DNA from: an uncultured Woeseiaceae bacterium
GTDB taxonomy: Bacteria; Pseudomonadota; Gammaproteobacteria; Steroidobacterales; Woeseiaceae
Assembly (NCBI GenBank): GCA_964607425.1
Contig: CAZSKQ010000001.1
Span: 27,784-91,783 of the forward strand
Direction: 5' to 3'
DNA length: 64,000 nucleotides
Below, one piece after another: positions 5,042 to 29,207 of the stretch; the stretch's first letter is position 1; every line of letters begins with the position of its first letter. A program made the position numbers and the translations under genes. Below the pieces are notes generated by a model, which saw only the letters and a program-made list of their open reading frames with translations, had not been told where the DNA came from and made no database searches.

Positions 5042-5046
5042 GACGA

Positions 5047-7433: not shown

Positions 7434-9437
7434 ATGCAGAGTCTCTCATGGTACGTCAACCGCCTCATGTCCATGGACACGGCGGAAATACTCTGGCGCG
7501 CCAGGACGGTCGTTCGCGACCGCGTGGACATGCTGCGGGTTCCGCTGGGACGCCTGCCGCGCCTGCCGGACTCCCGCGGGCGCTCACCCGCGCTGTTTAT
7601 CCCGGGTTTTCGTTGCAGCCCCGTGGGGCAGGCTGACTGGCGCGCCCTCGATGCCGGCCTGTCCAGGGCCTGGACAGCACGCTTGCTGGCGAAGGCCGAC
7701 GCAGCACTCGAGAACCGGCTGAGCTATTTCGACCTCGAACGGCAGCACCACGGCGAGCCCTGCAACTGGCATCGCGATTTCTCCGCGGGCAAGGACAGTC
7801 CCCTCCTGCACGTAGCGCGCATCGACTACCGCGATTTTTCGCGTGTCGGCGATTGCAAGCTCGTGTGGGAACCGAACCGCCATCACCAGCTCGTGGTGCT
7901 GGCCCGCGCATGGCGGGTTACCGGGGACCTGCGCTACGCACAGAAGGTTCGCGAGCTGATGCTGTCGTGGATAGAAGCCAATCCATTCGGCTTCGGCATG
8001 AACTGGAAGAGCCCGCTGGAGCTTGCCGTACGGCTGATCAACTGGATCTGGGCTCTCGACCTGACGCGCGACGCCGATGCCTTTACCGAACCCGAATGGC
8101 GAGCCGTGGAAGACCTGTGTTACCTCGCAACCTGGGATGTCCGGCGCAAGCTGTCGCGAGGATCCTCGGCAAACAATCACCTCATCGGCGAGGCCGCCGG
8201 GGTGTATGTCGCAGCCGCCTGGTTTGCCGATTTCCCGCAAGCCGAAGAGTGGCGTGCGCATTGCAAGCAGTTGCTCGAGCAGGAAATCGAGGCGCAAACC
8301 TACGCCGACGGCTGCACCCGCGAGCACGCGTTCGGCTACCAGTTTTTCGTGCTGCAGTTTGCCGTGTTCTCGCTGCTCGCCGGCCGCGGGATCGGCGAGG
8401 AGTTTTCAGCGCGCTTCCTCGATCGCGTGCACAGTATGTTTCGCTTCCTGCACGAGGTCGCGCGCGATACCGGCGCGCCTCCCGCGGTCGGCGACCAGGA
8501 CGACGGCTACGTGCTCGACCTCGGGGAGCTGCCCGCGGACGCCGGGCCGCTGATCGCGGTCGGCGGCGAGCTGTTCGAAGACGACGAGCTGCTCGGGACA
8601 GGCCCGAGCGAAACCTGTTTCTGGATTTCGGGGCGCGTTGCCGGCGGCGGCGCCGCGGGACCGGCCGTCAACGCGGAGTCGGTCCGTTTCGCGGCATCCG
8701 GCTACGCGCTGCTGCGCAGCGGCGCTGCCTCCCCGGCCGGGCGCCTGGCGGTATTCTTCGACTGCGCGGAGCTCGGCTACGGGCCGATCGCCGCACACGG
8801 TCACGCGGATGCCCTGAGCTGCACCGTAGCCGTGGACGGGCGTCCCGTGATCGTCGACCCGGGCACCTACGACTACTTCACCCATCCCGAATGGCGTGCC
8901 TACTTCCGTTCGACACGCGCCCACAACACCGTCGAGCTCGACGGTGTCTCGCAGTCGCAATCGCTGGGGCCGTTCCTGTGGGGCCGCAGAGCCACGGCGC
9001 GCCTGCTGGAGTGGTCCGATACGCCGGCAACGACGATCGCCTGCGGCGAGCACGACGGGTACCGGGGCCTGGCCTCGCCGGTGCTGCACCGGCGCCGGCT
9101 CGCGCTGGATAAGACTGCTTTGCGGCTCTCGATCACGGACACCCTGGAGGGCAGCGGAGCCCACACGGCGCGCTGGCACTTTCACCTGCACCCCGACTGC
9201 AGCCCGCGGCAGGTAGACCCGCACACCGTCGACATCGAAACCGGCAATCACACGCTCCGGCTGCATACGCCGACGTTGGCGCTCTCCGTGGTCCGTGCCG
9301 CGGAAGGCGGACGGCTGGGCTGGATCAGCGCGGGCTATCATCGCCGATCGCCGTCCGCCTGCATCGTGGCGGAATGCCGATTCACGGACGGCTATACCGC
9401 GGCGGCGGAGCTCATCGTCCTCCCGCGTGAGGCGTAA
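7434..9437 (+). CDS. Heparinase II/III-like (alginate-lyase fold) family protein
   Basis: 667 aa. Contains WEPNRHHQL, SSANNHLIGEAAG, a central toroid-like region and C-terminal AAHGHADALS, characteristic of heparinase II/III-like proteins found in polysaccharide loci. Confidence 0.8.
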   Translation: MQSLSWYVNRLMSMDTAEILWRARTVVRDRVDMLRVPLGRLPRLPDSRGRSPALFIPGFRCSPVGQADWRALDAGLSRAWTARLLAKADAALENRLSYFDLERQHHGEPCNWHRDFSAGKDSPLLHVARIDYRDFSRVGDCKLVWEPNRHHQLVVLARAWRVTGDLRYAQKVRELMLSWIEANPFGFGMNWKSPLELAVRLINWIWALDLTRDADAFTEPEWRAVEDLCYLATWDVRRKLSRGSSANNHLIGEAAGVYVAAAWFADFPQAEEWRAHCKQLLEQEIEAQTYADGCTREHAFGYQFFVLQFAVFSLLAGRGIGEEFSARFLDRVHSMFRFLHEVARDTGAPPAVGDQDDGYVLDLGELPADAGPLIAVGGELFEDDELLGTGPSETCFWISGRVAGGGAAGPAVNAESVRFAASGYALLRSGAASPAGRLAVFFDCAELGYGPIAAHGHADALSCTVAVDGRPVIVDPGTYDYFTHPEWRAYFRSTRAHNTVELDGVSQSQSLGPFLWGRRATARLLEWSDTPATTIACGEHDGYRGLASPVLHRRRLALDKTALRLSITDTLEGSGAHTARWHFHLHPDCSPRQVDPHTVDIETGNHTLRLHTPTLALSVVRAAEGGRLGWISAGYHRRSPSACIVAECRFTDGYTAAAELIVLPREA

Positions 9438-14779: not shown

Positions 14780-15982
14780 TCAGGTACATGGCGCCAGAAT
14801 CCCGTCCCATTGCGCGGCGACGTTCGAAGTGGCCAGGCGCATGGCATCGCGGCGTGCCCGGGCACCGAGCGTTCGGCGAAGCGCTGCATCCTCGCAAAGA
14901 AGCGAGAGCTTTTCCGCGAAAGCGTCGACGCTCGAGGGTGTGACGAGATACCCGTTGATGCCATCCTGGACCAGGTCGCCAAGATCGCCCACGTCGCTGA
15001 CGACAACGGGTAGCGCGCACAGCATCGCCTGCACCATGGCCTGCGACAGGCCTTCGGACTCGGAAGTCAGCACGAAAACGCGGCTGCGCTTGAGCCATGC
15101 ATGCACGTCACTCTGCCAGCCGACGAAGTCCACGCGGTCCGCAACCCCATGCGCTTCCGCGAATTCCATGAGCTCACCGCGGAGGGGACCATCGCCGACG
15201 ATCGCCGCCCGCACGGCGCCGCCAAGGCGCGCTATGGCTTCGATCAGCACGTCGACCCTCTTCACTCGCGAGAGCCGCCCCACCAGCACGAGGTCGTAGT
15301 CCGGTGCCGCCTCCGCCGGCGCGAACAAGTCGGCATCGAAGCCTCCCGGCACGACGACGACCTGCCCGGATGCGCCCGCCCGTTCGAAGAACCGGCGCAC
15401 GCTCTGACCCATCGTGACGATGTAGTCGAACCGGCCGGCCGCTGCGAGCAGCTTCCTTTCGACATAAGGGCTCGGACCCTGCAGGCGGCGAAAGATCTGG
15501 TTTTCGGTTGCATAACCGCCGCCGTCGACTTCCCGTGCACCGCCGCCGCAGATGTACAGGGAGCGCGCCCCGATCGCACGCGCCACCAGGAGAGCAATGA
15601 GCCCGTTGACCAGCAGGTGGAAACCGCCGACGACGTCGGCCCGGCTGCGCACGGCCACGCGCACGAAGGTCGCCAGCCTCGCGGAGGTCCTGCCGCAGAG
15701 GCGCACCAGCCAGCGGGCGGGGTATACGGCCTCGACGCCGGGGATCTCCGGAACCGGCGATGCCGCAACCATGGTGATCCGCCGGATGGAACGCGAACGG
15801 GCCATCGGACGCAGGTGTGTCTCCAGCCAGTTGTCGGTGTAAAAGGTACCGGTCAGCACCACGTGCGCGCCCGCGGCCGGGAGCGGCCGCTGCTTCGGGC
15901 CCAGCCGCTCCGCGAGCCGGATGGCGCCTGACAGCAAAGTGATGAACGCCGCGATGGCAGCGCGCAGGATGGCGCGTTTCAC
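14780..15982 (-). CDS. Glycosyltransferase family 4
   Basis: 400 aa. C-terminal GT-B motif SESEGLSQAMVQAMLCALPVVVSDVGDLGDLVQDGINGYL. Confidence 0.85.
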   Translation of the reverse strand: MKRAILRAAIAAFITLLSGAIRLAERLGPKQRPLPAAGAHVVLTGTFYTDNWLETHLRPMARSRSIRRITMVAASPVPEIPGVEAVYPARWLVRLCGRTSARLATFVRVAVRSRADVVGGFHLLVNGLIALLVARAIGARSLYICGGGAREVDGGGYATENQIFRRLQGPSPYVERKLLAAAGRFDYIVTMGQSVRRFFERAGASGQVVVVPGGFDADLFAPAEAAPDYDLVLVGRLSRVKRVDVLIEAIARLGGAVRAAIVGDGPLRGELMEFAEAHGVADRVDFVGWQSDVHAWLKRSRVFVLTSESEGLSQAMVQAMLCALPVVVSDVGDLGDLVQDGINGYLVTPSSVDAFAEKLSLLCEDAALRRTLGARARRDAMRLATSNVAAQWDGILAPCT

Positions 15983-17094
15983 AGCGTTTCCTCGAACAGC
16001 CGCTCGAAGCGGCTCATCGCGACGTCAATGGCATGATGTCGTTCGAACCATGCGCGCGCGCGCACGCCGACGGCTGCGCGCTCTCCGGATTCCTGTACGA
16101 GGCGGCTGATCTCGCGGCAGAACGCATCACTGTCCGCCGCCACCGCCCCGAGGCCCTCGCGCGCGATCAGCCCGTCGGGATCCACCGTCGACACGACGGG
16201 CAGGCCCGCGCTCCACGCCTCGATGAAGGTATTCGGGAAACCTTCATAGTGCGACGTGCAACAGAGGGCGGTGGCGCCACGATATAGTTCGGCCAGCTGC
16301 TGCTTGCCGGCCGCACCGAAAAACTCGAGGTTCGGCACCGTGCGTGCGGCCTCCTGCACCTCGGGGACATAGGGGTCGGACGGATCGCCCGGCCCGACGA
16401 CGACGAAACGGAAATCCGGCAGCCGTTGCGCGACTTCCACGAACAGCGCGATGTTCTTCTCCGGGGCGATGCGGCCGACCAGAAGCAGCATCGGCGGCTT
16501 GCCGGGCGTCCCTTCGGGCGCGCCCCAACCCGGTCCGTAATCGTGACCCGGCATCGGCAGAATGGTGGCGGGCCGCCCGGTCGCCTGCTCCAGCCGCCGC
16601 CCCTGGTCGCCGGTCTGCACGATGATCCTGTTCGCCGCGCCAAGCCCGTAGCGGTAGAGCATGCCCTCGCGCAGCGAGGTGCCCCCATGCAGCCATTCGT
16701 TGCAATCGATATCGCTCGCGACCGAGAACACGAACTTGCGCCGGTGCCGGCGACACCAGAGCGCCACCTGGCCTGTCACTTCCTCTGCGCCGTTCTGGTA
16801 ATAGAGCTCGGCGTCGGCGGCGCCGAGCGCGGTATTCAGGGAACTCCAGCGGGGTATGAAGAAGCGTACGAACGGAACGCCTGCCGCACGTGCGCAGGTC
16901 TTGATTACCCGCACGTTATCGAAAGTTTCGGTCGGCGGCCCACCCTCATCCCAGGTGATCAGCGAAACCTGGTGCCCCCGGCCCGCCAGCCAGCGGGCCA
17001 GCATCGAGGTCTGGCGCTCCACCCCGCCAATGTGGCCGGTGCGCCGGCCGCTGATCATGCCGTAGGCGTTGTGGGCTACGATCGCTATTCGCAT
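15979..17094 (-). CDS. Glycosyltransferase family 4
   Basis: 371 aa. MRIAIVAHNAYG..GG.E, SHYEGFPNTFIEAWSAGLPVVST. 4-nt overlap with the next gene. Confidence 0.85.
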   Translation of the reverse strand: MRIAIVAHNAYGMISGRRTGHIGGVERQTSMLARWLAGRGHQVSLITWDEGGPPTETFDNVRVIKTCARAAGVPFVRFFIPRWSSLNTALGAADAELYYQNGAEEVTGQVALWCRRHRRKFVFSVASDIDCNEWLHGGTSLREGMLYRYGLGAANRIIVQTGDQGRRLEQATGRPATILPMPGHDYGPGWGAPEGTPGKPPMLLLVGRIAPEKNIALFVEVAQRLPDFRFVVVGPGDPSDPYVPEVQEAARTVPNLEFFGAAGKQQLAELYRGATALCCTSHYEGFPNTFIEAWSAGLPVVSTVDPDGLIAREGLGAVAADSDAFCREISRLVQESGERAAVGVRARAWFERHHAIDVAMSRFERLFEETL

Positions 17095-17353: not shown

Positions 17354-18412
17354 TCAATCCTGCACGGTACCGGTGACGGCGCCCTGCACCTGGACGCGTA
17401 CCGGTGCCTTGATCGTGTTACCCGTGACCGTGATGTCCCTCGTGTGGCGCAGCTGGATGCCGACTTCGCGGGCCGTGATGTCGTTACCCTCGATCACATG
17501 GCCTGACACCCCGCTCGATACGATGCCAAGGCTGGTGTCCAGGATGACATTGTCGAGAATCGCCGCATCAAACGCGTCGTCGTGGATGACCACAGCGGCG
17601 CCGGAGCTGGACTGAGTGGGCCTGAATCCCTCCATCCGCACGCCCGACACCACCACGTTGCGGGAATCCTTGATGTCGACCGCGTTTTCACGGTTGTGGT
17701 GGAAATAGCCGCCGCCGATATAGACTCGCTCGGCGCTGCCGCGGCTGGCGTCCCCGACCTGGACGGAATCGCCCGAGACGTCGTAGATTTCCGCATTGAG
17801 CACCCACTGGTCCGGGCCGAACAGCTTCATACCGTGGAAATCCTGCTCGTCCGCGTGCTGGCGGTTGTCACCGAAACCGTGGATGGATCCCCGGATCCAC
17901 ACGTTGCCTTGCCCAAGGCCCACCGCCGATGAGTAGCCCGAGGCCGTCCCCGGCCCCGCCACCTCGAGGTCGCGAATGACGCAGAAACTGCAGCCGCGGG
18001 AGCTGAACCAGTCACCGCGGCCGGAGCCCGCGTTGACCAGCCCACCGTCCAGGACCACGAAGGTACCGGACAGGCTCAGGTTCGTGAAACTCGCGCCGGA
18101 GGCATCGATCACGCAGGGGGCTTTGGCGCTGCCGTTACAGGAGAGCGTGTCCTTGCCGCGATCACCTGTGACCGTCCGGTCGGCCGGGTAGTCGGCCCAG
18201 ACGTCGAAGCCCAGCAGGTCGGAGGGGTCGGGGATACCGCGAAACGTTGAAGAATTCGACGGGGCGTTTACGCTGCTGCCCGCGGGACCGGGGGCAGCCT
18301 CCGGTGGCCCGGGCCGCTGGGAGGCAACGCTCGTCGCTGCCGGCGAACAGCCGGCGAGGCACGACCCGCTAGTGAGTATCGCAAGCAGCAGGCGGCCGAA
18401 CACGTGGTCCAT
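17354..18412 (-). CDS. Right-handed beta-helix lipoprotein, paralogue of the C-terminal module of the 809-aa lyase-like protein
   Basis: 352 aa. Lipobox LAGC. From about residue 53 it aligns without gaps with residues about 508-809 of the upstream gene (FRGIP.PSD.LGFDVWADY, NVWIRGSIHGFGDNRQ, GGGYFHHNRENAVDIKDSR). Confidence 0.75.
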   Translation of the reverse strand: MDHVFGRLLLAILTSGSCLAGCSPAATSVASQRPGPPEAAPGPAGSSVNAPSNSSTFRGIPDPSDLLGFDVWADYPADRTVTGDRGKDTLSCNGSAKAPCVIDASGASFTNLSLSGTFVVLDGGLVNAGSGRGDWFSSRGCSFCVIRDLEVAGPGTASGYSSAVGLGQGNVWIRGSIHGFGDNRQHADEQDFHGMKLFGPDQWVLNAEIYDVSGDSVQVGDASRGSAERVYIGGGYFHHNRENAVDIKDSRNVVVSGVRMEGFRPTQSSSGAAVVIHDDAFDAAILDNVILDTSLGIVSSGVSGHVIEGNDITAREVGIQLRHTRDITVTGNTIKAPVRVQVQGAVTGTVQD

Positions 18413-18572: not shown

Positions 18573-21002
18573 TCAATTACACCCGGTCTGGATATCGCCG
18601 CTCGCGCCACCCTGGATGTTCATGCACGTCGGCGCGGAGATCTTGTTGTCGCGCACGGTAAGATCGCTCGTGGCGCGCAGCTCGATGCCCGTACTGAGGG
18701 CGACGATGTCGTTGCTTTCAATGGTATGTCCGCGCATCCCCGAGGACACGATGCCGATGCGGGCGTCCCGAATCACGTTGTCGTAGATTCGCGCATTGAA
18801 GGCGTCGTCGTGGATCACGACGGCCTCACCGGGGCTGGACGCGGTAGGCTTAAAGCCTTCCATCAGCACGCCGGACACGACCACGTCGCGCGAATCCTTG
18901 ATGTCGACCGCGTTCTCCCGGTTGTGATGGAAGTAACCGCCGCCGATATAGACGCGCTCACAGCTACCCCGTGAAGCATCGCCACACTGGACCGAGTCGC
19001 CGGACACGTCATAAATCTCGGCGTTCAGTATCCATTTGTCGGATCCCATGGCCTTGATCCCGTGGAAGTCCTGCTCCCGTGCATCCTGGCGGTTGTCGCC
19101 GAAACCGTGGATGCTGCCGCGAATCCAGACGTTGAAGGTACCAAGGCCCGCCGCCGACGAATGGCCCGCGTCGGTACCGGGACCGGCCAGCTCCAGGTCG
19201 CGAATCACGCAGAAGTTGCAGTTGCTGGAGTTGAAGAACGGCCCGTTGCCGGAACCGGCATTGATCAGGCCGCCCTGCAGGATCACGTAGGTGCCGGAGA
19301 GCGAGAGCTTGGTGAAGCTCGCTCCCGACGCGTCGATCAGGCACGGATCGGCCTCGGTGCCGTTGCACGACAGGGAGTCGCTGCCGCGCTTGCCGGTGAT
19401 CGTCTGGTCGGCCGTGTAATCGGCCCATACGTCGAAGCCCAGCACGTCGGAGGGCTCCGGGATGCCCCGAAAAGCGGACTGTCCCGGCGGTATGCTGCCG
19501 CCACCGCTCGACGGCGGCGGATCGTCGTCCGGCGGCGGCTCATCCCCGCCGCCCGCGGCCGCTTCCGCGTACGCCTCATCGATCGTTGCGAGCAAGGCGG
19601 ATTCGGTGCCCGTCTTGTGGTGCGTGCCGGCTTTCCTGATGTCGGCCGGGATGCGAGGTGCCACGTAGTCGATACCGTCGTGCACCATGCTGATGCGCGC
19701 CGAGTTTCCGGAGGTGCCGCCGGCATCGGTCTCACCGGCCGGCCAGATATTGCCGTCGAAGAACCAGCTGCCGCCGGTGCCCTGGACGATGAAGGCGTCG
19801 TTCGGCCCGCCGCTCAGGCCGGAAACGTACAAGTAGGCATTCTGCTCCACGTTCGCCGACGGAGAACCGGTTCCAGGCGCCAGGTTCATGCCGGCGGCGC
19901 CGCCCTCGAACCAGCCCCAGCCGTAGATCACGTTCCCTACGAAGTCCACCTGGCGGGTATTGTAGCGAATGCGCGGCTGCCGCTCGTTCAGGCGAGCGTA
20001 CACGTTGCCGTAGATCGTCAGGCGCTCGCGCAGCCCGCTTTCCTGCGAGAAGTGCTGCCCCTGCACCGAGTCCATGATGAGGCTGTTGGACAACGTGACA
20101 TCGCTGACGTCGCCGTAGATATCGACGTTGCCGTCGCCGGACCCGATCATCGTCAGGTGGTCCAGCACTACCCGGGAAACGGGCGCGCCGCTGGAGCCGT
20201 CGAGCTCCCAGAGGTCGTTGCCCTCGACGGAGCCACCCTCCCCGATCGCGCGGATGTTGTTCACGATGATGTCGTGCACCGGCTTGCTGCTCCTGGCCTC
20301 GAGCACCAGCCGGCCTACGTTGGTCAGCGTAATGCCCGGCGCCGGCGCGGTCGCGCCGTCGATTGTCAGGTAGCTGGTACTGATCTGCAGGTCGCCGATG
20401 GGAATATTGCCCGCGACATCGAACACGATGTGGCGGCAGTCCTGGCTCACCGCATCGCGCAGCGTGCCGGCTCCCCCGCTGCCGGAAAGCGATGTGACCC
20501 TGTAAGTGGTCATGCCCGTGGGGCAGCTCATCGCTCCCTTCGTTACCGAGCCGAAGCCGAGGTAATCTGCCGCCGGCGCCGCGCCCTGGTCGGCGACGTC
20601 GATGGCGAATGCGTCAAGGGAATCCTCCGCGGCGCCGTCGCTGACCGAGATCACGATGTCCTCGTAGACGCCTTCGTCGCCGCTCCCCGGAACGCCTGAG
20701 AGCTTTCCCGAAGCCGCGTCGAATTCGGCCCACTCGGGCTTGTTTTGGACTGTAAAGGTGAGCGTATCCCCGTCCGCGTCGGAAGCGGCGGGAGCAAACA
20801 GGTACGCTTCGCCGATCGTGGCTTCGCCCGCCGGCGAGCCCGAAATCACCGGCGCTTCGTTGTCGTTGCCGCCCGGTATGCCCGGTGTGGGAGCCTGTGC
20901 TTCGTCGCTGTCGGGAGTAGTTCCTGACTTGCAGCCGCCGAGCAGGGCGGCGATGGCAATGATCGAAAGAGGCAGGCTGACGCGCGGTCGGGTCGTGGTC
21001 AT
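18573..21002 (-). CDS. Bimodular secreted lipoprotein: Ig/cadherin-like domain - PL1 pectate-lyase-like beta-helix - Pro-rich linker - second beta-helix module
   Basis: 809 aa. Lipobox LLGGC (Cys24). PVISGSP..DADGDTLTF..LSGVP Ig-like repeat. PL1-like region about residues 165-420 (GTLRDAV, IVFDV.G, LTIDG, RQPRIRYN). Linker GGGDEPPPDDDPPPSSGGG. C-terminal about 300 aa paralogous to 17354-18412. Confidence 0.8.
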   Translation of the reverse strand: MTTTRPRVSLPLSIIAIAALLGGCKSGTTPDSDEAQAPTPGIPGGNDNEAPVISGSPAGEATIGEAYLFAPAASDADGDTLTFTVQNKPEWAEFDAASGKLSGVPGSGDEGVYEDIVISVSDGAAEDSLDAFAIDVADQGAAPAADYLGFGSVTKGAMSCPTGMTTYRVTSLSGSGGAGTLRDAVSQDCRHIVFDVAGNIPIGDLQISTSYLTIDGATAPAPGITLTNVGRLVLEARSSKPVHDIIVNNIRAIGEGGSVEGNDLWELDGSSGAPVSRVVLDHLTMIGSGDGNVDIYGDVSDVTLSNSLIMDSVQGQHFSQESGLRERLTIYGNVYARLNERQPRIRYNTRQVDFVGNVIYGWGWFEGGAAGMNLAPGTGSPSANVEQNAYLYVSGLSGGPNDAFIVQGTGGSWFFDGNIWPAGETDAGGTSGNSARISMVHDGIDYVAPRIPADIRKAGTHHKTGTESALLATIDEAYAEAAAGGGDEPPPDDDPPPSSGGGSIPPGQSAFRGIPEPSDVLGFDVWADYTADQTITGKRGSDSLSCNGTEADPCLIDASGASFTKLSLSGTYVILQGGLINAGSGNGPFFNSSNCNFCVIRDLELAGPGTDAGHSSAAGLGTFNVWIRGSIHGFGDNRQDAREQDFHGIKAMGSDKWILNAEIYDVSGDSVQCGDASRGSCERVYIGGGYFHHNRENAVDIKDSRDVVVSGVLMEGFKPTASSPGEAVVIHDDAFNARIYDNVIRDARIGIVSSGMRGHTIESNDIVALSTGIELRATSDLTVRDNKISAPTCMNIQGGASGDIQTGCN

Positions 21003-21010
21003 CGTGAACT

Positions 21011-21052
21011 CCTCAAAGTCAGCGAAATGACATTCAAAGTCAGCGAAGTGAC
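21011..21052 (-). repeat. Tandem 21-bp direct repeat in the 5' leader, ending in the Shine-Dalgarno of the 809-aa gene
   Basis: Minus strand reads GTCACTTCGCTGACTTTGAAT then GTCATTTCGCTGACTTTGAGG (18/21 identical), then AGTTCACG-ATG. Confidence 0.8.
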
Positions 21053-21129
21053 GTTTTCGCCAGCGGGCCAGGAGGGATTACAGGAATGCCCAGCAACGCG
21101 AGGCCGGCGCGTGCGCGCCAGCCGAGGAG

Positions 21130-21222
21130 TTCTTGGCAACCCCGCTATCGTAGGTAATACGATTACCCGTAGACCGGAAGCTTTGCGTCCTCGCTTTTCA
21201 ACGAGTTTGCCTTTGTCAGGTG
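21130..21222 (-). promoter_or_regulatory. c-di-GMP-I (GEMM-I) riboswitch aptamer in the leader of the lyase-like lipoprotein operon
   Basis: Minus strand reads ACAAAGGCAAACUCGUUGAAAAGCGAGGACGCAAAGCUUCCGGUCUACGGGUAAUCGUAUUACCUACGAUAGCGGGGUUGCCAAG. It carries the GEMM-I blocks GGCAAAC, a 6-bp hairpin capped by GAAA, GACGCAAAGC, CCGG, a second hairpin (GGGUAAU/AUUACCU) and AGCGGGGUUnCC, in the same order and spacing as the Vibrio Vc2 aptamer. Confidence 0.8.
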
Positions 21223-21373
21223 TGTTCATTATTTTTTATTGTCCCCCTTATAGCAAGGCAGTAATGGCGTTTCTGCCGAACCAAAACACAATTCTGTGAA
21301 GTGGTTCATGCCGCCGTTTTAGTTAGCCGCCACGCGCGCCCTGGGGCACGGTGGCAGGCATTAGCGCGTCTTC

Positions 21374-21389: not shown

Positions 21390-21520
21390 GGTCATTACGG
21401 GGACCTATAAGGGGCTGTTTTTCTTGCTTTTACTTTAGACCGCGCTGGCCTTATGTCAACCGCGCGCGTTCGCGGGGCGTCTGCGTTCGGCGACAGGTTG
21501 TTCCCGGCGCACTTCATACT

Positions 21521-21839: not shown

Positions 21840-23696
21840 ATGTGCGGAATTGCCGGCAAGTGCCTCCCCGATGCCTCCGCGCCCGTCGACCGCGGCCTGC
21901 TCGAGCGCATGACACGCGCGCTCGCCCATCGCGGTCCTGACGGCGAAAGCCTGCACTTCGACGCCGGCGTGGGCCTCGGGCACCGCCGGCTCAGCATCAT
22001 CGACCTCGAAGGCGGAACGCAGCCGATCTTCGGTGCCGGCGGCGCGTTGGCCGTGATCTTCAACGGCGAGATTTACAATTACAAGGAACTCCGCGACGAG
22101 CTCATCGCGGACGGTTACCGTTTCAGCACGCAGTCGGACACCGAGGTCATCGTTCACCTGTACGATCGGATGGGCGCTGAATGCGTGCACCGGTTGAACG
22201 GAATGTTCGCCTTCGCGATCTGGGACAACCGGTCCAGAACCCTGTTCGCCGCGCGTGACCGGCTGGGTGAGAAGCCTTTCTATTACCATCACGCGCCGAA
22301 TGGCGCGCTCCTGTTCGCGAGCGAGATCAAATCCCTGCTCGAGAGTGACGCGATCGACCGCGCACTCGACCTCGGCGCCGTCGATGATTATTTCGCCTAC
22401 GGCTACGTACCCGGTTCGAAATCGATTTACCGCCAGATCCGCAAGCTCCCCGCGGCACACACGCTGACCTGGCGCGAGGGCAGGCTGTCGATTCAGCGTT
22501 TCTGGTCGCATACCGAAGCGGCGGCCGATGCGCCAAAAACCCCGTCGGGTGCGCTCGAAGCAGTCGATACACTGCTCCGCGACTCCATTCGCCTGCGGCT
22601 GCGCAGCGACGTGCCCGTGGGTGCATTCCTGAGCGGCGGTATAGATTCCAGCCTCATCGTCGCACTTGCCAGCGAGCTTTCGGCAGCCCCGCTCTCCACA
22701 TACTCGATCGGGTTCCGGGAAACGGAGTTCGATGAAAGCAGCTTCGCGCGTGCGATCGCCGAACGGCACGGCACCGTACATCGCCAGATCACTGTCGGCG
22801 AACTCAACCTCGACCGTTTCCCCGACCTGGTGCGCCAGTTCGACGAACCGTTCGCCGACCCCTCAGCCGTTCCGACCTACTACGTCACGCAGGCAGCCTC
22901 GCGCGACCTCAAGGTGTGCCTCTCCGGCGATGCCGGCGATGAGCTTTTCGCCGGTTACCCACAGTACGTGCTGGAGCCGGGCGAGGCGTGGGTGGACCGG
23001 CTTCCGGCCTGGCTGAGGCAGCTCGCCTTCGGCATCCCGGCGCGGCTCATTCCCGATCACGTACGAGGGAAGGGCTGGCTGAGGCGGCTCGCGGTGGACG
23101 GCGCGGTGCGTTACCAGCGCATCATCGGTGTCTTCGACAATGTCGAGCGGGAACGCCTGTTCCGGCGCGACGCGGGCATCCGCGTCGATCCCGGCGCAAG
23201 CTTGCTCACGCCGTGGTTCAAGCACGATCGTTCACCGATCCGGGCGCGCCAGCTCGCGGACCAGGCCACCTTTCTCACCGACGACATACTCGTCAAGGTC
23301 GACCGCAATTCGATGATGAACAGCCTCGAGGTGCGGGTGCCATTTCTCGACCATCGCCTGGTGGAGCTCGCGAACGCCCTGCCGGTCTCGTTGCACATAA
23401 AAGGCGGCCGGCAGAAATGGATACTCAAGGAGCTGCTCGAGGAGAAGGCGCCCGCGGGCATCACCCGCCGCGGCAAGCAGGGATTCAATATGCCCATACG
23501 CGACTGGCTGCGTGGCAGCTATCGTGAGTACGCGCGGGACCTGCTCCTCTGCCCGGGCAATCGCTCGCTCGATTTCCTGGATGCTGCCGCCGTGCGCCGG
23601 CTGTTCGATGCGCACCAGCACGGCCAGAGGGATCTCAGCGCCCGCCTCTGGACCCTCATGTGGTTCGAGCAATGGTGCCGGCATTTCAGGGCATGA
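21840..23696 (+). CDS. asnB: Asparagine synthase (glutamine-hydrolysing) family amidotransferase
   Basis: 618 aa. Starts MCGIAG (Ntn Cys2), HRGPDG. PP-loop FLSGGIDSS. Resembles the amidotransferase found in exosortase-A type EPS loci. Confidence 0.9.
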   Translation: MCGIAGKCLPDASAPVDRGLLERMTRALAHRGPDGESLHFDAGVGLGHRRLSIIDLEGGTQPIFGAGGALAVIFNGEIYNYKELRDELIADGYRFSTQSDTEVIVHLYDRMGAECVHRLNGMFAFAIWDNRSRTLFAARDRLGEKPFYYHHAPNGALLFASEIKSLLESDAIDRALDLGAVDDYFAYGYVPGSKSIYRQIRKLPAAHTLTWREGRLSIQRFWSHTEAAADAPKTPSGALEAVDTLLRDSIRLRLRSDVPVGAFLSGGIDSSLIVALASELSAAPLSTYSIGFRETEFDESSFARAIAERHGTVHRQITVGELNLDRFPDLVRQFDEPFADPSAVPTYYVTQAASRDLKVCLSGDAGDELFAGYPQYVLEPGEAWVDRLPAWLRQLAFGIPARLIPDHVRGKGWLRRLAVDGAVRYQRIIGVFDNVERERLFRRDAGIRVDPGASLLTPWFKHDRSPIRARQLADQATFLTDDILVKVDRNSMMNSLEVRVPFLDHRLVELANALPVSLHIKGGRQKWILKELLEEKAPAGITRRGKQGFNMPIRDWLRGSYREYARDLLLCPGNRSLDFLDAAAVRRLFDAHQHGQRDLSARLWTLMWFEQWCRHFRA

Positions 23697-23712
23697 GAGC
23701 AGTGCGGCACGC

Positions 23713-24891
23713 ATGAAGATCACGGTAGTCATTGTCGTCAGCAATCTCGAGTACGGCGGCGCGCAACGCCAGATCGTCGAGCTCGCGAACCGGATCGATC
23801 GCGAGCACTTCGACTTGCACGTGTGCTCCCTGTCCGGTTACGTGCCATTGGCCGCGGATCTCGAAGCAGCGGATACGCGCCTGCATATCATCCGCAAGCG
23901 TTACAAGTTCGACGCCTCTGTCGTGCCGCGCCTGGCTCGCCTGCTCCGGCGCCTGCGCGCCGATATCGTGCACGGCTATCTTTTCGACGCGGAGATTGCC
24001 GCGCGGCTCGCGGGGGCGCTCGCGCGGACCCCGGCGGTCGGGAACAGCGAACGCAACACCGACTACCGGTTCAAGCGGATCCAGCTCTTCGCACATGCGC
24101 TCACGCGCCCCTGCGTCGACTTCTACATCGCCAACTCGAATGCCGGCGCCACGTTCAGCCAGCGAATGTTGAAGAATCCGCACCGCTGGTACTACACCGT
24201 GCACAACGGCGTCGACACCTCGAGGTTTCGTCCCGGCGATCGCGCGGCGGCGCGCCTGAAACTCGGGCTCGAAGATGACGAGTTCGTAATCGGGATGTTC
24301 GGCAGCTTCAAGGAACAGAAGAATTACCCGCTGCTGTTCGAAACCGTGCGCCGGGTACTCGATCGGCACGCGCGCACGCGCCTGCTGCTGGTGGGCGATG
24401 AGCTGGCGGGCGGCCTGCACGGCTCCAGCAGCTACAAGCAACGCATGCTGGAGCTGGCCGAGCGCCTCGACCTGCTTCGCCACGCCGTCTTCACGGGCAA
24501 TCGCGGCGACGTGGAAAACCTGTATCCTGCTTGCGACGTCACGGCGCTGCCGTCGCTGTTCGAGGGCACGCCGAACGTTGCCCTGGAATCGATGGCCTGC
24601 GGCGTGCCGGTCGTGGCAACCGCGGTCTCGGATAACGCGTACATCGTCCGGGACGGCGAGACCGGCTATCTCGTGCCGCTGGGGGACCCCGGCCAATACA
24701 GTGAGCGCCTGCTTGCCGTCGCGCGCGACCCCGCACTGCGGGCGAGACTCGGGGCCGCGGCCCGCTGCTGGGTCGAGACGGAATTCTCCGGTGCGCGCCT
24801 GGCGGCCAAAACGGAAGCGGTCTACCGCGACGTGCTCAAAAGACCTTCGCCGGAGGCCGAAACCCTGCGGAGCTTCCGCCCCCCGCTGTAG
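23713..24891 (+). CDS. Glycosyltransferase family 4
   Basis: Track ORF trimmed to ATG 23713 (MKITVVIVVSNLEYGGAQRQ). C-terminal PSLFEGTPNVALESMACGVPVVAT. The stop TAG lies inside a REP element. Confidence 0.85.
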   Translation: MKITVVIVVSNLEYGGAQRQIVELANRIDREHFDLHVCSLSGYVPLAADLEAADTRLHIIRKRYKFDASVVPRLARLLRRLRADIVHGYLFDAEIAARLAGALARTPAVGNSERNTDYRFKRIQLFAHALTRPCVDFYIANSNAGATFSQRMLKNPHRWYYTVHNGVDTSRFRPGDRAAARLKLGLEDDEFVIGMFGSFKEQKNYPLLFETVRRVLDRHARTRLLLVGDELAGGLHGSSSYKQRMLELAERLDLLRHAVFTGNRGDVENLYPACDVTALPSLFEGTPNVALESMACGVPVVATAVSDNAYIVRDGETGYLVPLGDPGQYSERLLAVARDPALRARLGAAARCWVETEFSGARLAAKTEAVYRDVLKRPSPEAETLRSFRPPL

Positions 24892-24910
24892 GAGCGCGCC
24901 ATGCGCGCGA
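24888..24910 (+). repeat. REP-like palindromic element, forward copy
   Basis: GTAGGAGCGCGCCATGCGCGCGA. Contains the stop codon of the GT4 gene. Confidence 0.85.
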
Positions 24911-24932
24911 CAAAACACCCGCCACCCGTGGC

Positions 24933-24986
24933 ATCGCGCGCATGGCGCGCTCCTACAATGGCATCGCGCGCATGGCGCGCTCCTAC
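24933..24986 (-). repeat. Two tandem REP-like elements (30-bp period), inverted relative to 24888-24910
   Basis: ATCGCGCGCATGGCGCGCTCCTAC at 24933-24956 and 24963-24986. The second contains the stop codon of the 499-aa minus-strand gene. Confidence 0.85.
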
Positions 24987-26482
24987 AGGGGAGGGGGTGG
25001 TGGTGTTTCGGGGTGCTCGAAGCTGCCCAGGTCGGGGGCGGCTCCCTGCCAGGCCGGGTGGACGCCGGCACCGCGCCGCCAGCTCGCCGGGCGGCCCAGG
25101 GTCAGCGTGCCGCTTGCGTAATCGACGTGGACGATACTAACCGGTGACGGCTGCCCTTCGATGGCGATCAGGTCGCCGGATTCGCCGGGGATGCCAAAGC
25201 CGTCGTAGAACCAGTTCGCATCGTCGACGATGAGCTCGACGCCCTCGCCGTCCGAGCGTGCGTGCGCGGCGAAAGCACCGGTATCGACAAGTCTGCTGCC
25301 TGCCCGCGGCCTGAAGTCGCCGGCCGCCGCGTCGCGGAACCCCGGGTCTTCCTCGAATTCCCCGTTCTCCAGCAGGATGACCTGCCGGCCGTCCTCGATG
25401 TCCGTCTGACGCCCGATCCTGCCGCGGCAGTCCGCATTGCGGAAGAACGCGTTGTTCAGCACCCGGTTGTCGTAGAACCGCCGCGACGATCCGCTCTGGC
25501 CGATCACGGCATAACAATGGTTGGCGTAAAAAGTGTTGTTGTAGAGCCGATTGCCGTGGACAAACAGCGACTCCTCCGGATAGTACTGGTAGTTGACGCC
25601 GCCGCCGAGGTTACCCGTGAACAGGTTGTAGCGCACGATGGTGTCCTGGCCGCCGTGCTGAATCGCGTTGTAGCGATAGTTGCTCCCCGCCGCCGCCGTC
25701 CCCGCGAAATGATTATGCTCCAGGAGATTGCGGCGGCTGTCGTCCAGCCGCACCGGGGCATCGCTGACACCCTCGCAATCGTATATCTCCGCGGCCTTCT
25801 GCTCGGGATTGGCGAACCGGTTTTTGCGAAGCACGTTGTAGCTGGAACAGCGGATGCTGAGAAGGCTGTGCGAGGCGCCGTGAAAGCGGTTGCCCGCGAT
25901 GACGTTGCGATCGGACTTGTCCTGCAGCAGCAGGAGGTCGCTGCCGTCCTCGAACGAGCTGTTCACGATCCGGTTGCCGGCGCTCCTGACGAGCTTGAGT
26001 GCCCCCGTCGTGCCGCTTGCGCGCGCGCCCTCGAAGCGCAGGTTGTCGATAACGATCCCGGTCGAGTTCTCCAGCCGGCCGAACCCCTGTACCCCGCTGA
26101 CGGCGAGGTCGGCGATACGGAGATGTGAGCGGTCGACCAGCCAGAGCCCGACCTCGGGCGAGGTAACGGTGACCGTTTCACCCGGCGCGCCGCGGATCAC
26201 GATCGGCTGCGCGGGAGTGCCGGAGACCGGCGGAGCAAGCTGCCCGTAGGTGCCGCCGCGCAGCCAGAGCACGTCGCCCGGTGCGAGCCGCGCCAGCGCT
26301 GCGTCCAGGGACGGGAACGCCTGCTGCTCCCCGACGGTGCAGCGGCGCATGGCGGGATCGTAGCTCCCGCAGGGCTCGGGCAGCGCCGGATCGACGTAAA
26401 GCTCCGTGCCGCCAACAGGGCCCGGACCTGCCACGGCAACAAGCAGCAACGCGGCGGCGATCGGGTTGGCTTCAATCCGCAT
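24983..26482 (-). CDS. Secreted right-handed parallel beta-helix repeat protein
   Basis: 499 aa. Signal-like N-terminus (AAALLLVAVAGPG). Repeated N-x-hydrophobic rungs (IVIDNLRFEG, NRIVNSSFE, NVIAGNRFHG, NLLEHNHFAG, VRYNLFTGN, NRLYNNTFY). Last gene of the 13.5-kb operon. Confidence 0.7.
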   Translation of the reverse strand: MRIEANPIAAALLLVAVAGPGPVGGTELYVDPALPEPCGSYDPAMRRCTVGEQQAFPSLDAALARLAPGDVLWLRGGTYGQLAPPVSGTPAQPIVIRGAPGETVTVTSPEVGLWLVDRSHLRIADLAVSGVQGFGRLENSTGIVIDNLRFEGARASGTTGALKLVRSAGNRIVNSSFEDGSDLLLLQDKSDRNVIAGNRFHGASHSLLSIRCSSYNVLRKNRFANPEQKAAEIYDCEGVSDAPVRLDDSRRNLLEHNHFAGTAAAGSNYRYNAIQHGGQDTIVRYNLFTGNLGGGVNYQYYPEESLFVHGNRLYNNTFYANHCYAVIGQSGSSRRFYDNRVLNNAFFRNADCRGRIGRQTDIEDGRQVILLENGEFEEDPGFRDAAAGDFRPRAGSRLVDTGAFAAHARSDGEGVELIVDDANWFYDGFGIPGESGDLIAIEGQPSPVSIVHVDYASGTLTLGRPASWRRGAGVHPAWQGAAPDLGSFEHPETPPPPPL

Positions 26483-27698
26483 AGTTCAGCTTCCGCCAGG
26501 GCAGGTAAACGACCGCACGGCGGCCGGCCGGATCGTCGTAGCGCCGGGCCTGGACTTCGCGCCCGCGGCAAAAAAGCCGGACATCGCGTTCCCGGGGCAC
26601 CTGGAAACTCAGGCCGTCGAGCGGCAGGTCCCCGACGCTGTCGTCGAGCAGAATGTCCAGTACCTCACCGCTGTCCTGCGTGGTGAAGGACAATGTTTGC
26701 GACAGGCGCGAAAAATCCAGTACGCGCCGCGTTGTCGCGACCAGGATTTCCTCCTGGTGCGTGCGCTCCTTCAGTTTCTCGAGCGCCGCGCGTGTAGCCG
26801 GCGGGAATCCGGTGCGCGAATCGATCCGCTTGCCGAGATGCGTATAGACGATCGCCTTCGCCCGGCGCGCGACGAGCCGGTCCAGGAAAGCATCCGAGAG
26901 CGCCGCGGCGAGGCCCTCCGCGTTGTCACCCGCCGACACGCCGAGAGGATGCGGGTTGCTTCGCAGGAACTCCGTTGCGTGCCGCCCGTCCCGCAGCGTT
27001 ACGTCCCGCAGCAGCCTGTTACGGCCATGCATCACGTACCTGCCGGCGCCAAAGGCGGCGAGCGCGCGCTTGGCGGTCTCCTTGCCGAGTGTCACCAGGC
27101 TGCCCCCAGGCTGCTCCGGCCGCCAGATGCCTCCGGTACTCGGTGGAGCATCCTGCCCGTGCATGCTGCTGACGCGTCCGCGCCAGACGTAGCGCACGCC
27201 GTAGTCAAAAGTCAGATCCGCGTGGTAGGCGGGGCTGCCGGGCAGATCGCCCTCCCCCTGCATGATATCGGCGCCGAAATTGGTTACCGCCACCGCATGA
27301 TCGATCCAGACCCGAAGGCGGCAATCGAATGCGTCCAGGTGTTCGAGCGTTTCCTGCACCTGTTCGCGGCGGCTCGCCGTATCCCCGAAAGAATGGATGC
27401 AGTCGATGTGCCCGGAGCCGATCAGGTTGCGCACCGCTTCGCGCACGGCATCCGTGGTGTTCCAATAGGAAAACTGCGGTGCGTCCATGTAAAAGTAGAT
27501 CGTGTTGCCGACTTCTAGATTGACGCCGGTGCCGAACGATGTACGGCTGTTCGTATTCAGGTAGCGGCTGGTGGCGAGGTAGGTTTCGGCGCCGGGTGTT
27601 TCGTCGAGGTCGCTGCACACGGCGAGCATCGCGCGGTACGGCCAAGGGAGGTCCCGCACCTCGACGGCAGCGGTTCGATGTTTGCCGGCCGCGTCCAC
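26472..27698 (-). CDS. Hypothetical protein (no family recognised)
   Basis: 408 aa ORF, co-oriented with and overlapping the next gene by 11 nt. Coding-like composition. Motifs AVCSDLDETP and HIDCIHSFGD hint at a metal-dependent hydrolase/deacetylase-like fold, but I cannot assign it. Confidence 0.55.
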   Translation of the reverse strand: MDAAGKHRTAAVEVRDLPWPYRAMLAVCSDLDETPGAETYLATSRYLNTNSRTSFGTGVNLEVGNTIYFYMDAPQFSYWNTTDAVREAVRNLIGSGHIDCIHSFGDTASRREQVQETLEHLDAFDCRLRVWIDHAVAVTNFGADIMQGEGDLPGSPAYHADLTFDYGVRYVWRGRVSSMHGQDAPPSTGGIWRPEQPGGSLVTLGKETAKRALAAFGAGRYVMHGRNRLLRDVTLRDGRHATEFLRSNPHPLGVSAGDNAEGLAAALSDAFLDRLVARRAKAIVYTHLGKRIDSRTGFPPATRAALEKLKERTHQEEILVATTRRVLDFSRLSQTLSFTTQDSGEVLDILLDDSVGDLPLDGLSFQVPRERDVRLFCRGREVQARRYDDPAGRRAVVYLPWRKLNYAD

Positions 27699-27704
27699 CG
27701 CGAA

Positions 27705-29207
27705 TCAGGCACGCACGGCCACGAGAACACGGGCCACATCCCGGCGCTGCAGGATGAGGGTCAATACGCCGGTGATCGCGGCGCCGGCACCCAGCGTGAT
27801 GAGCGGCCCGTAAGGTGAGGCGAACCGCAGCGCGGCAAGCGCGCCGCCGATCGCCGTCAGCAGGCGTACCGCCGGCCACAGCACCCTGGGCAGGTAGTCA
27901 GCCCCGAGATTCATATACCGGACACCCTCGATGATTACCGTGAGGCCCAAGCTGAGCGTGCTCGTGGTGGCGATCAGCATGGCGGCCCGAGGCAGCGTCC
28001 AGCCGAAAACGTACAGCGACGTGATGCCGACGCCGAGCACCGCGGCCGCGCGGAAGATTGCCTTCTTCGCGATAATGCCATGCCCGTCCAGCCCGATCAT
28101 GATACGCAGCAGCGCGTGCTGCGAGGTCGACAACAGCGCCCCGGCGGACAGCACGGCGCAAACAAGCCAGTTTGCATAGTCCGGCCCCATCCAGATGCCG
28201 ATTACGAGGTCACCGAGAACGAACATGAACGTGAGCGGCGGGATAGCCATGATCCAGCCGACGCGGGCGCTCTCCAGGGCGAATTCCCGTAGCTCTGTCT
28301 TTTTCTGCTGACTTTGCAGCGAGCCGGCCGTCGGCGTCAGCACGTAACCGAATTTGGAGGTCAGCGTCGTGATGTGGCGTACGAGAGCCATCGGCCGTGC
28401 CATCACGGCCAATGCTGCCGGGCCAAGGTGGGCGACGATGAACACGTTGACGGTCTGGAACGTTATGATCGCCGGCAGCCCGAGCATAATGGTTTTTACG
28501 CCAAACTTGACGACCATTTCCGCATCTTCCCTGTTGGACCAGGCGAAGCGGACGCGTAGCTCAGGGCATACCCGCCGCGCGATCACGTAACGCAGTATTT
28601 CAATGCCTGCCGTCGCGCAGAGATAGACGAGCGCCATCTCGCGCAGCCCGCCTCCCAGGGTCAGTGCGAGAATCATAAGAGCCGAGCTGACCGCGTGTCC
28701 GCCGGCGTTGATGGCGTTGTAATAGTCCCAGCGATGGCAGCCGCTGATAACGCCCCGCCAGGCGTCAAATGCCATCTCGATGGCCAGGGCACCTCCCAGG
28801 CACGCGATGATCCATCGCGCCGTGCCCGCGTAATCGCCGAGGCGGTGTTCGAGGAGGTTCGGGATAAGCCACGCGAGGATGAGGGCCGCCGCCGCAACCA
28901 GCGCCGCGATTCCGAGCTGGACCACGATGACGGTCGAAATCATCCGGTTGAGCGAGTTGACGTCACCGGTCGCGCGGTAGGTTGCCACGAAACGGTTGAC
29001 CGAAGAGCCGATGCCCAGCATCGCCAGGCTGAGGTAACTGACGAACGCCCATCCGAAGTCCCACACACCCAGCGCCGCCTGCCCGATGTACCCATCGATG
29101 AGGCGCGGCATGATGAAGCCGAACGCGACGAACACGAAATGGCTGGCGTAGCTGGCACCGACATTGCGTACCAGCCTGGAGCGCCCGGTCAGGTCTTCGG
29201 CGCTCAA
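27705..29207 (-). CDS. Polysaccharide flippase (Wzx/MOP superfamily)
   Basis: 500 aa, about 12-14 hydrophobic segments. N-terminal RNVGASYASHFVFVAFGFIMPRL, typical of polysaccharide biosynthesis (PST) transporters. Confidence 0.8.
   Translation of the reverse strand: MSAEDLTGRSRLVRNVGASYASHFVFVAFGFIMPRLIDGYIGQAALGVWDFGWAFVSYLSLAMLGIGSSVNRFVATYRATGDVNSLNRMISTVIVVQLGIAALVAAAALILAWLIPNLLEHRLGDYAGTARWIIACLGGALAIEMAFDAWRGVISGCHRWDYYNAINAGGHAVSSALMILALTLGGGLREMALVYLCATAGIEILRYVIARRVCPELRVRFAWSNREDAEMVVKFGVKTIMLGLPAIITFQTVNVFIVAHLGPAALAVMARPMALVRHITTLTSKFGYVLTPTAGSLQSQQKKTELREFALESARVGWIMAIPPLTFMFVLGDLVIGIWMGPDYANWLVCAVLSAGALLSTSQHALLRIMIGLDGHGIIAKKAIFRAAAVLGVGITSLYVFGWTLPRAAMLIATTSTLSLGLTVIIEGVRYMNLGADYLPRVLWPAVRLLTAIGGALAALRFASPYGPLITLGAGAAITGVLTLILQRRDVARVLVAVRA

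Follow-up and report, generated by a model that had tools for sequence, protein, structure and literature searches.

A canonical class I c-di-GMP aptamer ahead of a polysaccharide-lyase-like lipoprotein gene in an exopolysaccharide locus of an uncultured Woeseiaceae bacterium

The 64,000-nucleotide stretch of DNA analysed here (hereafter the window; contig CAZSKQ010000001.1 of assembly GCA_964607425.1, from an uncultured Woeseiaceae bacterium) carries on its minus strand an RNA that is almost certainly a genuine, canonical class I aptamer (GEMM-I) for the second messenger cyclic di-GMP (c-di-GMP). The aptamer lies in the leader of a gene for an 809-aa lipoprotein with a beta-helix resembling those of polysaccharide lyase family 1 (PL1), within a locus for the synthesis of an exopolysaccharide (EPS). 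Taking all the evidence together, we give a modest preference to the explanation that this is a canonical class I riboswitch acting as a translational OFF switch on the PL1-like lipoprotein gene of an acidic-EPS locus; the identity of the RNA is by far the firmest part of that explanation, and the sign of the switch is among the least firm.

The whole window was scanned against all 4227 Rfam families, with placements by Infernal and only the top-ranked member of each clan reported, and the sole match was at 21131-21220 on the minus strand (E = 1.3e-14). The top-ranked model there was RF03167, “c-di-GMP-I-GGC” (70.3 bits; cutoff 59); when 8 nt were cut off the 5' end, the remaining sequence scored 72.5 bits on RF01051 (cutoff 35), placed at 21132-21212 with no non-canonical pair flagged. 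An earlier reading made from the letters alone (the sequence-only reading) had put a c-di-GMP-I aptamer at 21130-21222 of the minus strand and had offered a score under the RF01051 gathering threshold as grounds for dropping the idea; the Infernal placement differs from it by at most 2 nt at either end, and the 5'-trimmed stretch scores well above that threshold. The parts of the aptamer are as follows:

21131-21220, minus strand: c-di-GMP-I aptamer, with a short P1, a P1a hairpin with a GAAA tetraloop and a P1b with an extended distal stem (RF03167, RF01051 and covariation)
21190-21205, minus strand: P1a hairpin CUCGUU-GAAA-AGCGAG, 6 bp, with the GAAA at 21196-21199 (sequence and RF01051 alignment)
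21152-21168 (approximate), minus strand: distal P1b hairpin GGGUAAU-CGU-AUUACCU, 7 bp (insertions at the same spot in both model alignments)

Read from 21222 down to 21130, the minus strand gives, in order, AAAGGCAAAC, CUCGUU-GAAA-AGCGAG, GGACGCAAAGC, UUCCGGUC, GGGUAAU-CGU-AUUACCU and GAUAGCGGGGUUGCC. Every block on which the sequence-only reading had relied (GGCAAAC, the GAAA hairpin, UCCGG, the second hairpin and the rest) is present on this strand at the place it had given, with GGCAAAC at 21211-21205, GACGCAAAGC at 21189-21180, then UCCGG, and UAGCGGGGUUGCC running up to 21135.

We compared 11 distinct metagenomic loci orthologous for the 809-aa protein (full-length relatives at 57-71% amino acid identity; P0028 at 49%), and in 10 of them an aptamer lies on the same strand, 75-122 nt upstream of the start codon. 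The best model for these orthologous aptamers was RF01051 in five (71-83 bits, with leaders at 80.7-83.1 bits among them) and RF03167 in the other five (68-74 bits). The eleventh locus, L020, from an organism with 42% GC, had no aptamer and none of the hallmark sequences. A scan of genome contigs with the 809-aa protein retrieved only partial relatives, namely matches to its C-terminal domain in Thiodiazotropha and Sedimenticolaceae MAGs (metagenome-assembled genomes), without a riboswitch close by, and one Steroidobacter He_PIG locus in which the aptamer is present; the full-length orthologs come from metagenomes. An alignment of 11 sequences was made from the window, nine of the orthologous leaders and L008, an aptamer that precedes a He_PIG protein in a MAG of Steroidobacter. 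In this alignment 94.9% of the cells were paired under the aptamer structure, as against 35-50% in slid controls, and compensatory (two-sided) changes were seen in six aptamer pairs, located in P1, P1a and the distal P1b; within P1a, three of the six pairs show such changes among the 10 aligned relatives. The aligned sequences are few and related, so that a shuffle control overstates significance, and it is the slid controls and the compensatory pairs that are informative. It is true that some copies of the c-di-GMP riboswitch in Clostridioides difficile have been reported to be non-functional (PMC6366702), and a decayed relic or a chance match might be imagined here as well. We regard this as extremely improbable: the E value is of the order of 1e-14, the position has been kept across proteins that have diverged to 57-71% identity, and both compensatory helix changes and a conserved expression platform (described below) accompany it.

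The ligand pocket was examined against Vc2, the aptamer of Vibrio cholerae. The three letters below are each invariant in 11 of 11 aligned sequences:

21211, minus strand: G equivalent to Vc2 G20 (RF01051 alignment)
21184, minus strand: A equivalent to Vc2 A47 (GACGCAAAG in the window, versus GACGCGAAg in RF03167 and GACGCAAAg in RF01051)
21136, minus strand: C equivalent to Vc2 C92 (RF01051 alignment)

In Vc2, G20 contacts one guanine of the ligand and C92 forms a Watson-Crick pair with the other (PMC11705072). The window shares with Vc2 and RF01051 the two-hairpin architecture, the GAAA tetraloop of P1a and the receptor-like motif in P1b, and the equivalents of G20, A47, C92 and C44-G83 are all conserved; it differs from them in its receptor half (CUACG for CUAAG), its longer distal P1b (7 bp plus the CGU loop), its expression platform and the gene that it regulates. 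The distal P1b exceeds the RF01051 consensus in length, and its length differs between orthologs. In the crystal structures of Vc2, A47 has a stacking role. The pocket is of the standard G20/A47/C92 type, and the aptamer should bind c-di-GMP. The GAAA loop occurs in the window, whose receptor half reads CUACG...CUACGA (21162-21166 and 21148-21152, minus strand) for the consensus CUAAG...CUAuGA, with C in place of the second A of a presumed A-A platform. Of the other 10 sequences in the alignment, nine carry CUAAG or CUAAA, and only L008 also deviates (CUUACGG).

The first rank of RF03167 (for the window and likewise for L017, L022, L023, L024 and L008) could be taken to mean that the RNA belongs to the c-di-GMP-I-GGC variant, with an altered pocket and possibly another ligand. 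This is very unlikely. The only strongly conserved core difference between the RF03167 and RF01051 consensus lines is G versus A in GACGC[G/A]AAg, and from a comparison of the two lines “GGC” would appear to stand for the letters at positions 20, 47 and 92. At the A47-equivalent position, however, the window and 10 of 10 aligned relatives carry GCGCAAA or GACGCAAA, not the GACGCGAA of the variant, so that the family's G (GACGCGAAg) is A in the window and in all orthologs. The 72.5 bits on RF01051 speak against the variant too, as does the case of L017 and L018, which lie upstream of the same protein: the full-length L017 is assigned to RF03167 (73.7 bits), while L018, truncated at its 5' end, is assigned to RF01051 (71.1 bits). 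What the window does have in common with the variant is the modelled short P1 and the open distal P1b, and RF03167 outranks RF01051 here because it scores the short P1 and leaves the distal P1b unmodelled, which suits a long distal stem. Judged by these letters, the top rank of RF03167 is a scoring artefact and the pocket is canonical; membership of the GGC variant is rejected on the A at the distinguishing position together with the RF01051 score. Rfam clan competition nevertheless labels the window aptamer and L017, L022, L023, L024 and L008 (half of the orthologs) as RF03167 despite the canonical A, and automated annotation would thus mislabel the window RNA and half its orthologs as GGC variants.

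A change of ligand within the canonical fold has also to be weighed. The fold of c-di-GMP-sensing members is shared by those that sense 3'3'-cyclic GMP-AMP (cGAMP), and to our knowledge an Rfam score alone cannot separate the two. We consider a GEMM-Ib-type specificity for cGAMP highly improbable: the cGAMP-selective members (the GEMM-Ib RNAs of Geobacter) have an A at the G20 position, and the equivalent letter is G in all 11 aligned sequences. The c-di-GMP-I (GEMM-I) identity proposed in the sequence-only reading is upheld by the covariance-model score, conservation upstream of orthologous genes, covariation in the helices and canonical letters at the ligand contacts.

The gene downstream of the aptamer and its neighbors on the same strand are arranged as follows:

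18573-21002, minus strand: the regulated gene, encoding the 809-aa lipoprotein (He_PIG Ig domain, PL1-like beta-helix, Pro-rich linker and second beta-helix)
17354-18412, minus strand: gene for a 352-aa lipoprotein with its own lipobox, 72% identical to the second beta-helix domain, of which it is a stand-alone paralog
14780-17094, minus strand: two genes for GT4 glycosyltransferases, which may be co-transcribed

The 809-aa protein begins with a lipoprotein signal and lipobox (…AALLGGC), followed by the He_PIG Ig-like domain (residues 51-136), the PL1-like beta-helix (about 134-420) and the second beta-helix (505-805). The PL1-like beta-helix matches PF00544 at 27 bits (cutoff 24), gives weak sequence matches to PelA in the PDB and matches PelZ in NCBIfam with E 1e-18, a score far below the equivalog cutoff. 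Two motifs, VVLDH and RQPRIRY, correspond to vWiDH and RxPxxR of PL1, and both are kept almost unchanged in 21 homologs. An AlphaFold model of the protein had a mean pLDDT (predicted local distance difference test) of 78.6 and a low pTM (predicted template modelling score), the latter because the domains are loosely connected; Foldseek searches with this model returned PelA, PelC, Jun a 1 and PelB (target-normalised TM 0.43-0.59), and the overall layout matches the two-beta-helix alginate lyases of family PL6. The first beta-helix is similar to PL1 in sequence and fold, and its lyase activity and substrate are putative. Much the same evidence (lipobox, PF00544 and PelZ matches, motifs and Foldseek) bears out the secreted PL1-like/beta-helix pair of the sequence-only reading, the next gene being the 72% paralog of the second beta-helix. 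The order of lyase-like gene, optional beta-helix gene, GT4 and GT4 recurs in L015, L016, L019, L022 and L024. The second beta-helix domain also occurs, at 61-65% identity, in MAGs of Thiodiazotropha, Sedimenticolaceae and Chromatiales (L001-L006), and no riboswitch was detected near it there; it looks like a module that many lineages share.

Between the aptamer and this gene lies a leader in which a set of mutually competing segments can be recognized (SD, Shine-Dalgarno sequence):

21228-21256, minus strand: promoter-like site TTGCTA-17 nt-AATAAT (consensus scan, 9/12 matches)
21135-21144, minus strand: strand A, CGGGGUUGCC, the P1b 3' strand plus the C92 region (pairs within the aptamer or with downstream segments)
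21124-21132, minus strand: anti-SD1, GAACUCCUC, a perfect 9-nt complement of the SD region (read from sequence)
21102-21123, minus strand: hairpin H1, GGCUGGCGC-GCAC-GCGCCGGCC, with no U-run after it (4/9 pairs with compensatory changes in seven leaders)
21081-21090, minus strand: segment B, GGCAUUCCUG, complementary to strand A and forming the anti-aptamer helix (aligns with the orthologs' conserved GUCAGGCA(A/G)UYCC)
21070-21076, minus strand: CCCUCCU, a putative second pyrimidine-rich anti-SD-like segment (from sequence only)
21009-21050, minus strand: tandem 21-nt direct repeat, CACUUCGCUGACUUUGAAUGU and CAUUUCGCUGACUUUGAGGAG, the second copy bearing the SD (absent from the six orthologs aligned; a window-specific insertion)
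21009-21014, minus strand: SD GAGGAG, 6 nt (21008-21003) before the ATG at 21002-21000 (GAGG invariant in the ortholog alignment)

From the aptamer to the start of the gene the distance is 128 nt, and the SD region proper, GAGGAGUUC, occupies 21014-21006 of the minus strand. In the first copy of the repeat AAUGU replaces AGGAG, which opens a mini-ORF (open reading frame) of four codons (AUG UCA UUU CGC UGA). The promoter-like site ends about 7 nt before the aptamer, with a predicted transcription start at about 21221, the 5' edge of the aptamer, and the arrangement CTTGC...AAATAATGA is found at an equal offset from the aptamer in L014, L016, L019 and L022. A second promoter-like site, TTGACA-16-TAAAGT (21432-21459 of the minus strand), is the stronger of the two, with 10/12 matches. 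It stands some 200 nt upstream of the aptamer, in a divergent intergenic region of 840 nt shared with the amidotransferase gene, and its use would lengthen the leader.

No intrinsic-terminator-like site was found on the minus strand from the aptamer to the ATG or in the two downstream intergenic gaps. An expression platform built on an intrinsic terminator is accordingly ruled out, there being no such site on this strand and H1 having no U-run.

In the platform alignment, which comprised the window and the six orthologs with a homologous platform, the alternative structure (the P1b 5' strand with CCGGAAG, the A:B helix and H1) had 90.2% of its cells paired, versus 27-47% when slid. The A:B helix itself was 94% paired, with one compensatory change (CUGCC:GGCAG in L016), and the helix of the P1b 5' strand with CCGGAAG is degraded in the window (6/9 pairs). 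Strand A finds its partners in GGCAAUYCC and CCGGAAGUC in the orthologs, and in the window in the AACUCC of anti-SD1 and GGCAUUCCUG. The A:B helix forms in the minimum free energy (MFE) structure of the window's 145-160-nt transcripts, and local pairing of the AACUCC of anti-SD1 with the GGGGUU of strand A is seen in the MFE structure at 100, 125, 200 and 216 nt. In the free ensemble, strand A is paired downstream 54-100% of the time in nine of 10 leaders. Anti-SD1, for its part, has the SD as its partner with a probability of 0.95-0.99 in ensemble folds, and by our estimate a specific 9-mer would be expected by chance about 5e-4 times in a leader of about 129 nt. A promoter-like site that abuts the aptamer and a conserved alternative A:B helix are both found here, as in a mutually exclusive platform. 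Control at the level of translation is the mode that we would judge likeliest, and with fair confidence, because there is no intrinsic terminator, the competing helix is conserved and there are anti-SD segments, including the 9-nt complement of the SD.

The direction of the switch is a more delicate matter, and here we do no more than lean towards c-di-GMP turning the gene OFF, which is unproven. As the aptamer's G-rich 3' strand resembles an SD sequence, the downstream segments that pair with it are rich in pyrimidines and are able to mask the real SD as well, once ligand binding sets them free. On this model, a conserved sigma-70-like promoter would start transcription at about 21221, and the aptamer would be the first part of the RNA. 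Without ligand, the G-rich strand A would hold the anti-SD segments and leave the ribosome-binding site more accessible; with c-di-GMP bound, strand A would be locked in the aptamer, the anti-SD segments would be freed and the SD would be masked (translational OFF). High c-di-GMP, the signal of the sessile state, would then hold down an enzyme that cuts or trims the matrix.

We modelled this in 10 leaders by comparing the free ensemble with one in which the aptamer was enforced and the junction, P1 and GCC nucleotides were blocked. The mean unpaired probability of the SD was lower with the aptamer locked in seven of the 10 (L014, L015, L016, L017, L019, L022 and L024), with the largest falls in L016 (0.37 to 0.01), L019 (0.35 to 0.06), L022 (0.40 to 0.04) and L015 (0.82 to 0.34). 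Several points weigh against the OFF direction. The SD of the window is masked in both states at equilibrium (about 0.10-0.11), so that ON and OFF are not discriminated there and, for that reason, the OFF call for the window copy rests on kinetic reasoning. Accessibility is unchanged in L021 and falls only slightly in L017 (0.43 to 0.36); in L023, whose SD is unclear, it rises from 0.11 to 0.26. The models are of secondary-structure thermodynamics and ignore tertiary structure, co-transcriptional kinetics and competition by the ribosome. Lastly, if the EPS glycosyltransferase genes are co-regulated, their repression by c-di-GMP would contradict the usual paradigm and favor ON.

That last point leads to the same riboswitch with the opposite sign, in which the ligand would expose the ribosome-binding site or block Rho-dependent termination, and the lyase-like, beta-helix and GT4 genes would be turned ON together for EPS production. 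The order of lyase-like gene, GT4 and GT4 is conserved in six loci, no terminator or promoter was found on the minus strand in the intergenic gaps of the window, and in many EPS operons one of the enzymes required for synthesis is a lyase or hydrolase (AlgL, PelA, PslG, BcsZ). The modelling of L023 (0.11 to 0.26) fits an ON switch as well, and a reading of the leader with four elements (A:B, B:C and C:SD) would invert the sign. We nevertheless hold an ON switch to be doubtful, if far from negligible: the SD is less accessible with the aptamer locked in seven of 10 leaders, and the segments that ligand would release are pyrimidine-rich and complementary to the SD. The neighboring genes tell against it too: L014, L021 and L023 have the next gene on the opposite strand, and in L017 and L020 it is MatE-like or Wzy_C, not GT4. 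The RNA therefore travels with the lyase-like gene and not with the glycosyltransferase genes. The OFF switch on the lyase-like gene remains the direction towards which we lean.

The surroundings of the riboswitch agree with the EPS-locus setting proposed in the sequence-only reading, the window containing genes for export, glycosyltransferases and sugar nucleotides alike. For export and assembly there are Poly_export, a BBP2_2 porin, a Bac_transf priming transferase and Wzy_C; for sugar transfer and modification, several GT4 enzymes together with a sulfotransferase and a polysaccharide deacetylase; and for sugar nucleotides, a UDP-sugar dehydrogenase, a UDP-GlcNAc 2-epimerase, GMP/PMI (mannose-1-phosphate guanylyltransferase/phosphomannose isomerase) and PMM (phosphomannomutase). 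The presence of the UDP-sugar dehydrogenase implies that uronic acids are made, and a lyase requires these as substrate. Named homologs of the UDP-GlcNAc 2-epimerase are in Woeseiaceae or Woeseia MAGs (79-85% identity), which by itself would make a Woeseiaceae-like gammaproteobacterium the probable source. The locus also has an asparagine-synthase-type amidotransferase, a heparinase II/III-like protein, a GAF histidine kinase, a nonribosomal-peptide-synthetase-like (NRPS-like) protein with adenylation and peptidyl carrier protein (A-PCP) domains and a hybrid of polyketide synthase (PKS) and aminotransferase. Four genes of the locus bear on the nature of the polymer:

191-5308, minus strand: hybrid of ketosynthase, acyltransferase, acyl carrier protein and aminotransferase (KS-AT-ACP-aminotransferase), 1705 aa
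10258-13530, minus strand: NRPS-like adenylation-PCP protein, 1090 aa
29227-30198, minus strand: sulfotransferase
7434-9437, plus strand: heparinase II/III-like protein

These four genes suggest that the acidic polysaccharide is sulfated and either acylated or aminoacylated, and that there is a second lyase. The locus resembles those of the XrtA/PEP-CTERM type: the amidotransferase has TIGR03108 as its best match (637 bits, below the cutoff of 817), and the GT4 and ligase matches in NCBIfam are far below their cutoffs. A scan of 30 ORFs, reaching to about 52 kb of the window, found no exosortase. A strict XrtA/PEP-CTERM exosortase locus is thus ruled out, the marker scores being under the NCBIfam cutoffs, and the resemblance remains. 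The third-position GC of the called ORFs is about 0.76-0.87 before 50 kb and about 0.65-0.74 after 50.2 kb (to 64000); the drop suggests that base composition changes where the EPS locus ends, at about 50200. Four sizeable ORFs of the minus strand (23686-25071, 26472-27698, 27705-29207 and 36280-37872) matched neither Pfam nor NCBIfam models at the thresholds applied; the first of these overlaps a beta-helix gene (24983-26482) and may not be real.

The same sub-type of aptamer is found well beyond this gene family, the exact 18-nt core pattern CGCAAAGCTTCCGGTCTA occurring in at least 120 metagenome contigs. From these, 80 loci were taken, and in 75 of the 80 the longest downstream ORF (a crude gene call) was scanned against Pfam for the partner of the aptamer:

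He_PIG: 12 of 75 loci, the commonest partner family
FAD_binding_4: 9 of 75 loci
fn3: 8 of 75 loci
PilM: 7 of 75 loci
AhpC/Redoxin: 7 of 75 loci
Big_9: 6 of 75 loci

One GGDEF-EAL protein was also found among these downstream ORFs. The partner set is that of a typical surface, pilus and signalling regulon, with He_PIG surface proteins the most frequent. The FAD_binding_4/ALO oxidoreductase-like proteins (9/75) and the AhpC-TSA/Redoxin proteins (7/75) are unusual partners for control by c-di-GMP, as seen in crude gene calls (L025-L104).

Control of exopolysaccharides by c-di-GMP is usually described through protein receptors (Alg44, PelD, FleQ and BcsA in EPS systems). The systems of AlgL, PelA, PslG and BcsZ resemble the window in that a polymer-cutting enzyme is encoded beside the glycosyltransferases of an EPS locus; they differ in that they answer c-di-GMP via such receptors, whereas the window has a riboswitch on the enzyme's own mRNA. 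Among the full texts that could be searched, no paper linked a c-di-GMP riboswitch to a polysaccharide-lyase or lyase-like gene in an EPS locus, in keeping with the remark in the sequence-only reading that this coupling was not known to have been characterised. The closest parallel is zmpI (PPEP-1) of C. difficile, which is under a class I c-di-GMP OFF switch and encodes a protease that releases c-di-GMP-induced adhesins (PMC6366702). There, too, a class I riboswitch precedes the gene of a secreted enzyme that cuts the surface or matrix and is negatively regulated, and the logic is that of the OFF model proposed here. The two differ in that zmpI is a Firmicute gene for a protease acting on adhesins, regulated through transcription termination, and the window has a Gram-negative gene for a lyase-like lipoprotein, probably regulated in translation and in a direction that is unproven.

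The RNA class is thoroughly studied and would be found by any Rfam-based annotation; the new part is the gene partner and the environmental lineage. At least ten environmental lineages, probably related to the abundant Woeseiaceae of marine sediments, have kept the pairing of riboswitch and lyase-like gene. As a tentative and still rather speculative extension, the acidic EPS of Woeseiaceae-like sediment bacteria may be cut by the cell's own lipid-anchored polysaccharide lyase, with the class I riboswitch as a translational OFF switch on that enzyme, so that falling c-di-GMP would license degradation of the matrix and dispersal directly through the RNA, with no protein receptor involved. If the switch is indeed OFF, it would provide a simple and testable mechanism for the turnover of the matrix or for dispersal from it, and, if the enzyme is such a lyase, the first case in which a polysaccharide matrix takes the place that adhesins have in the ZmpI circuit of C. 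difficile.

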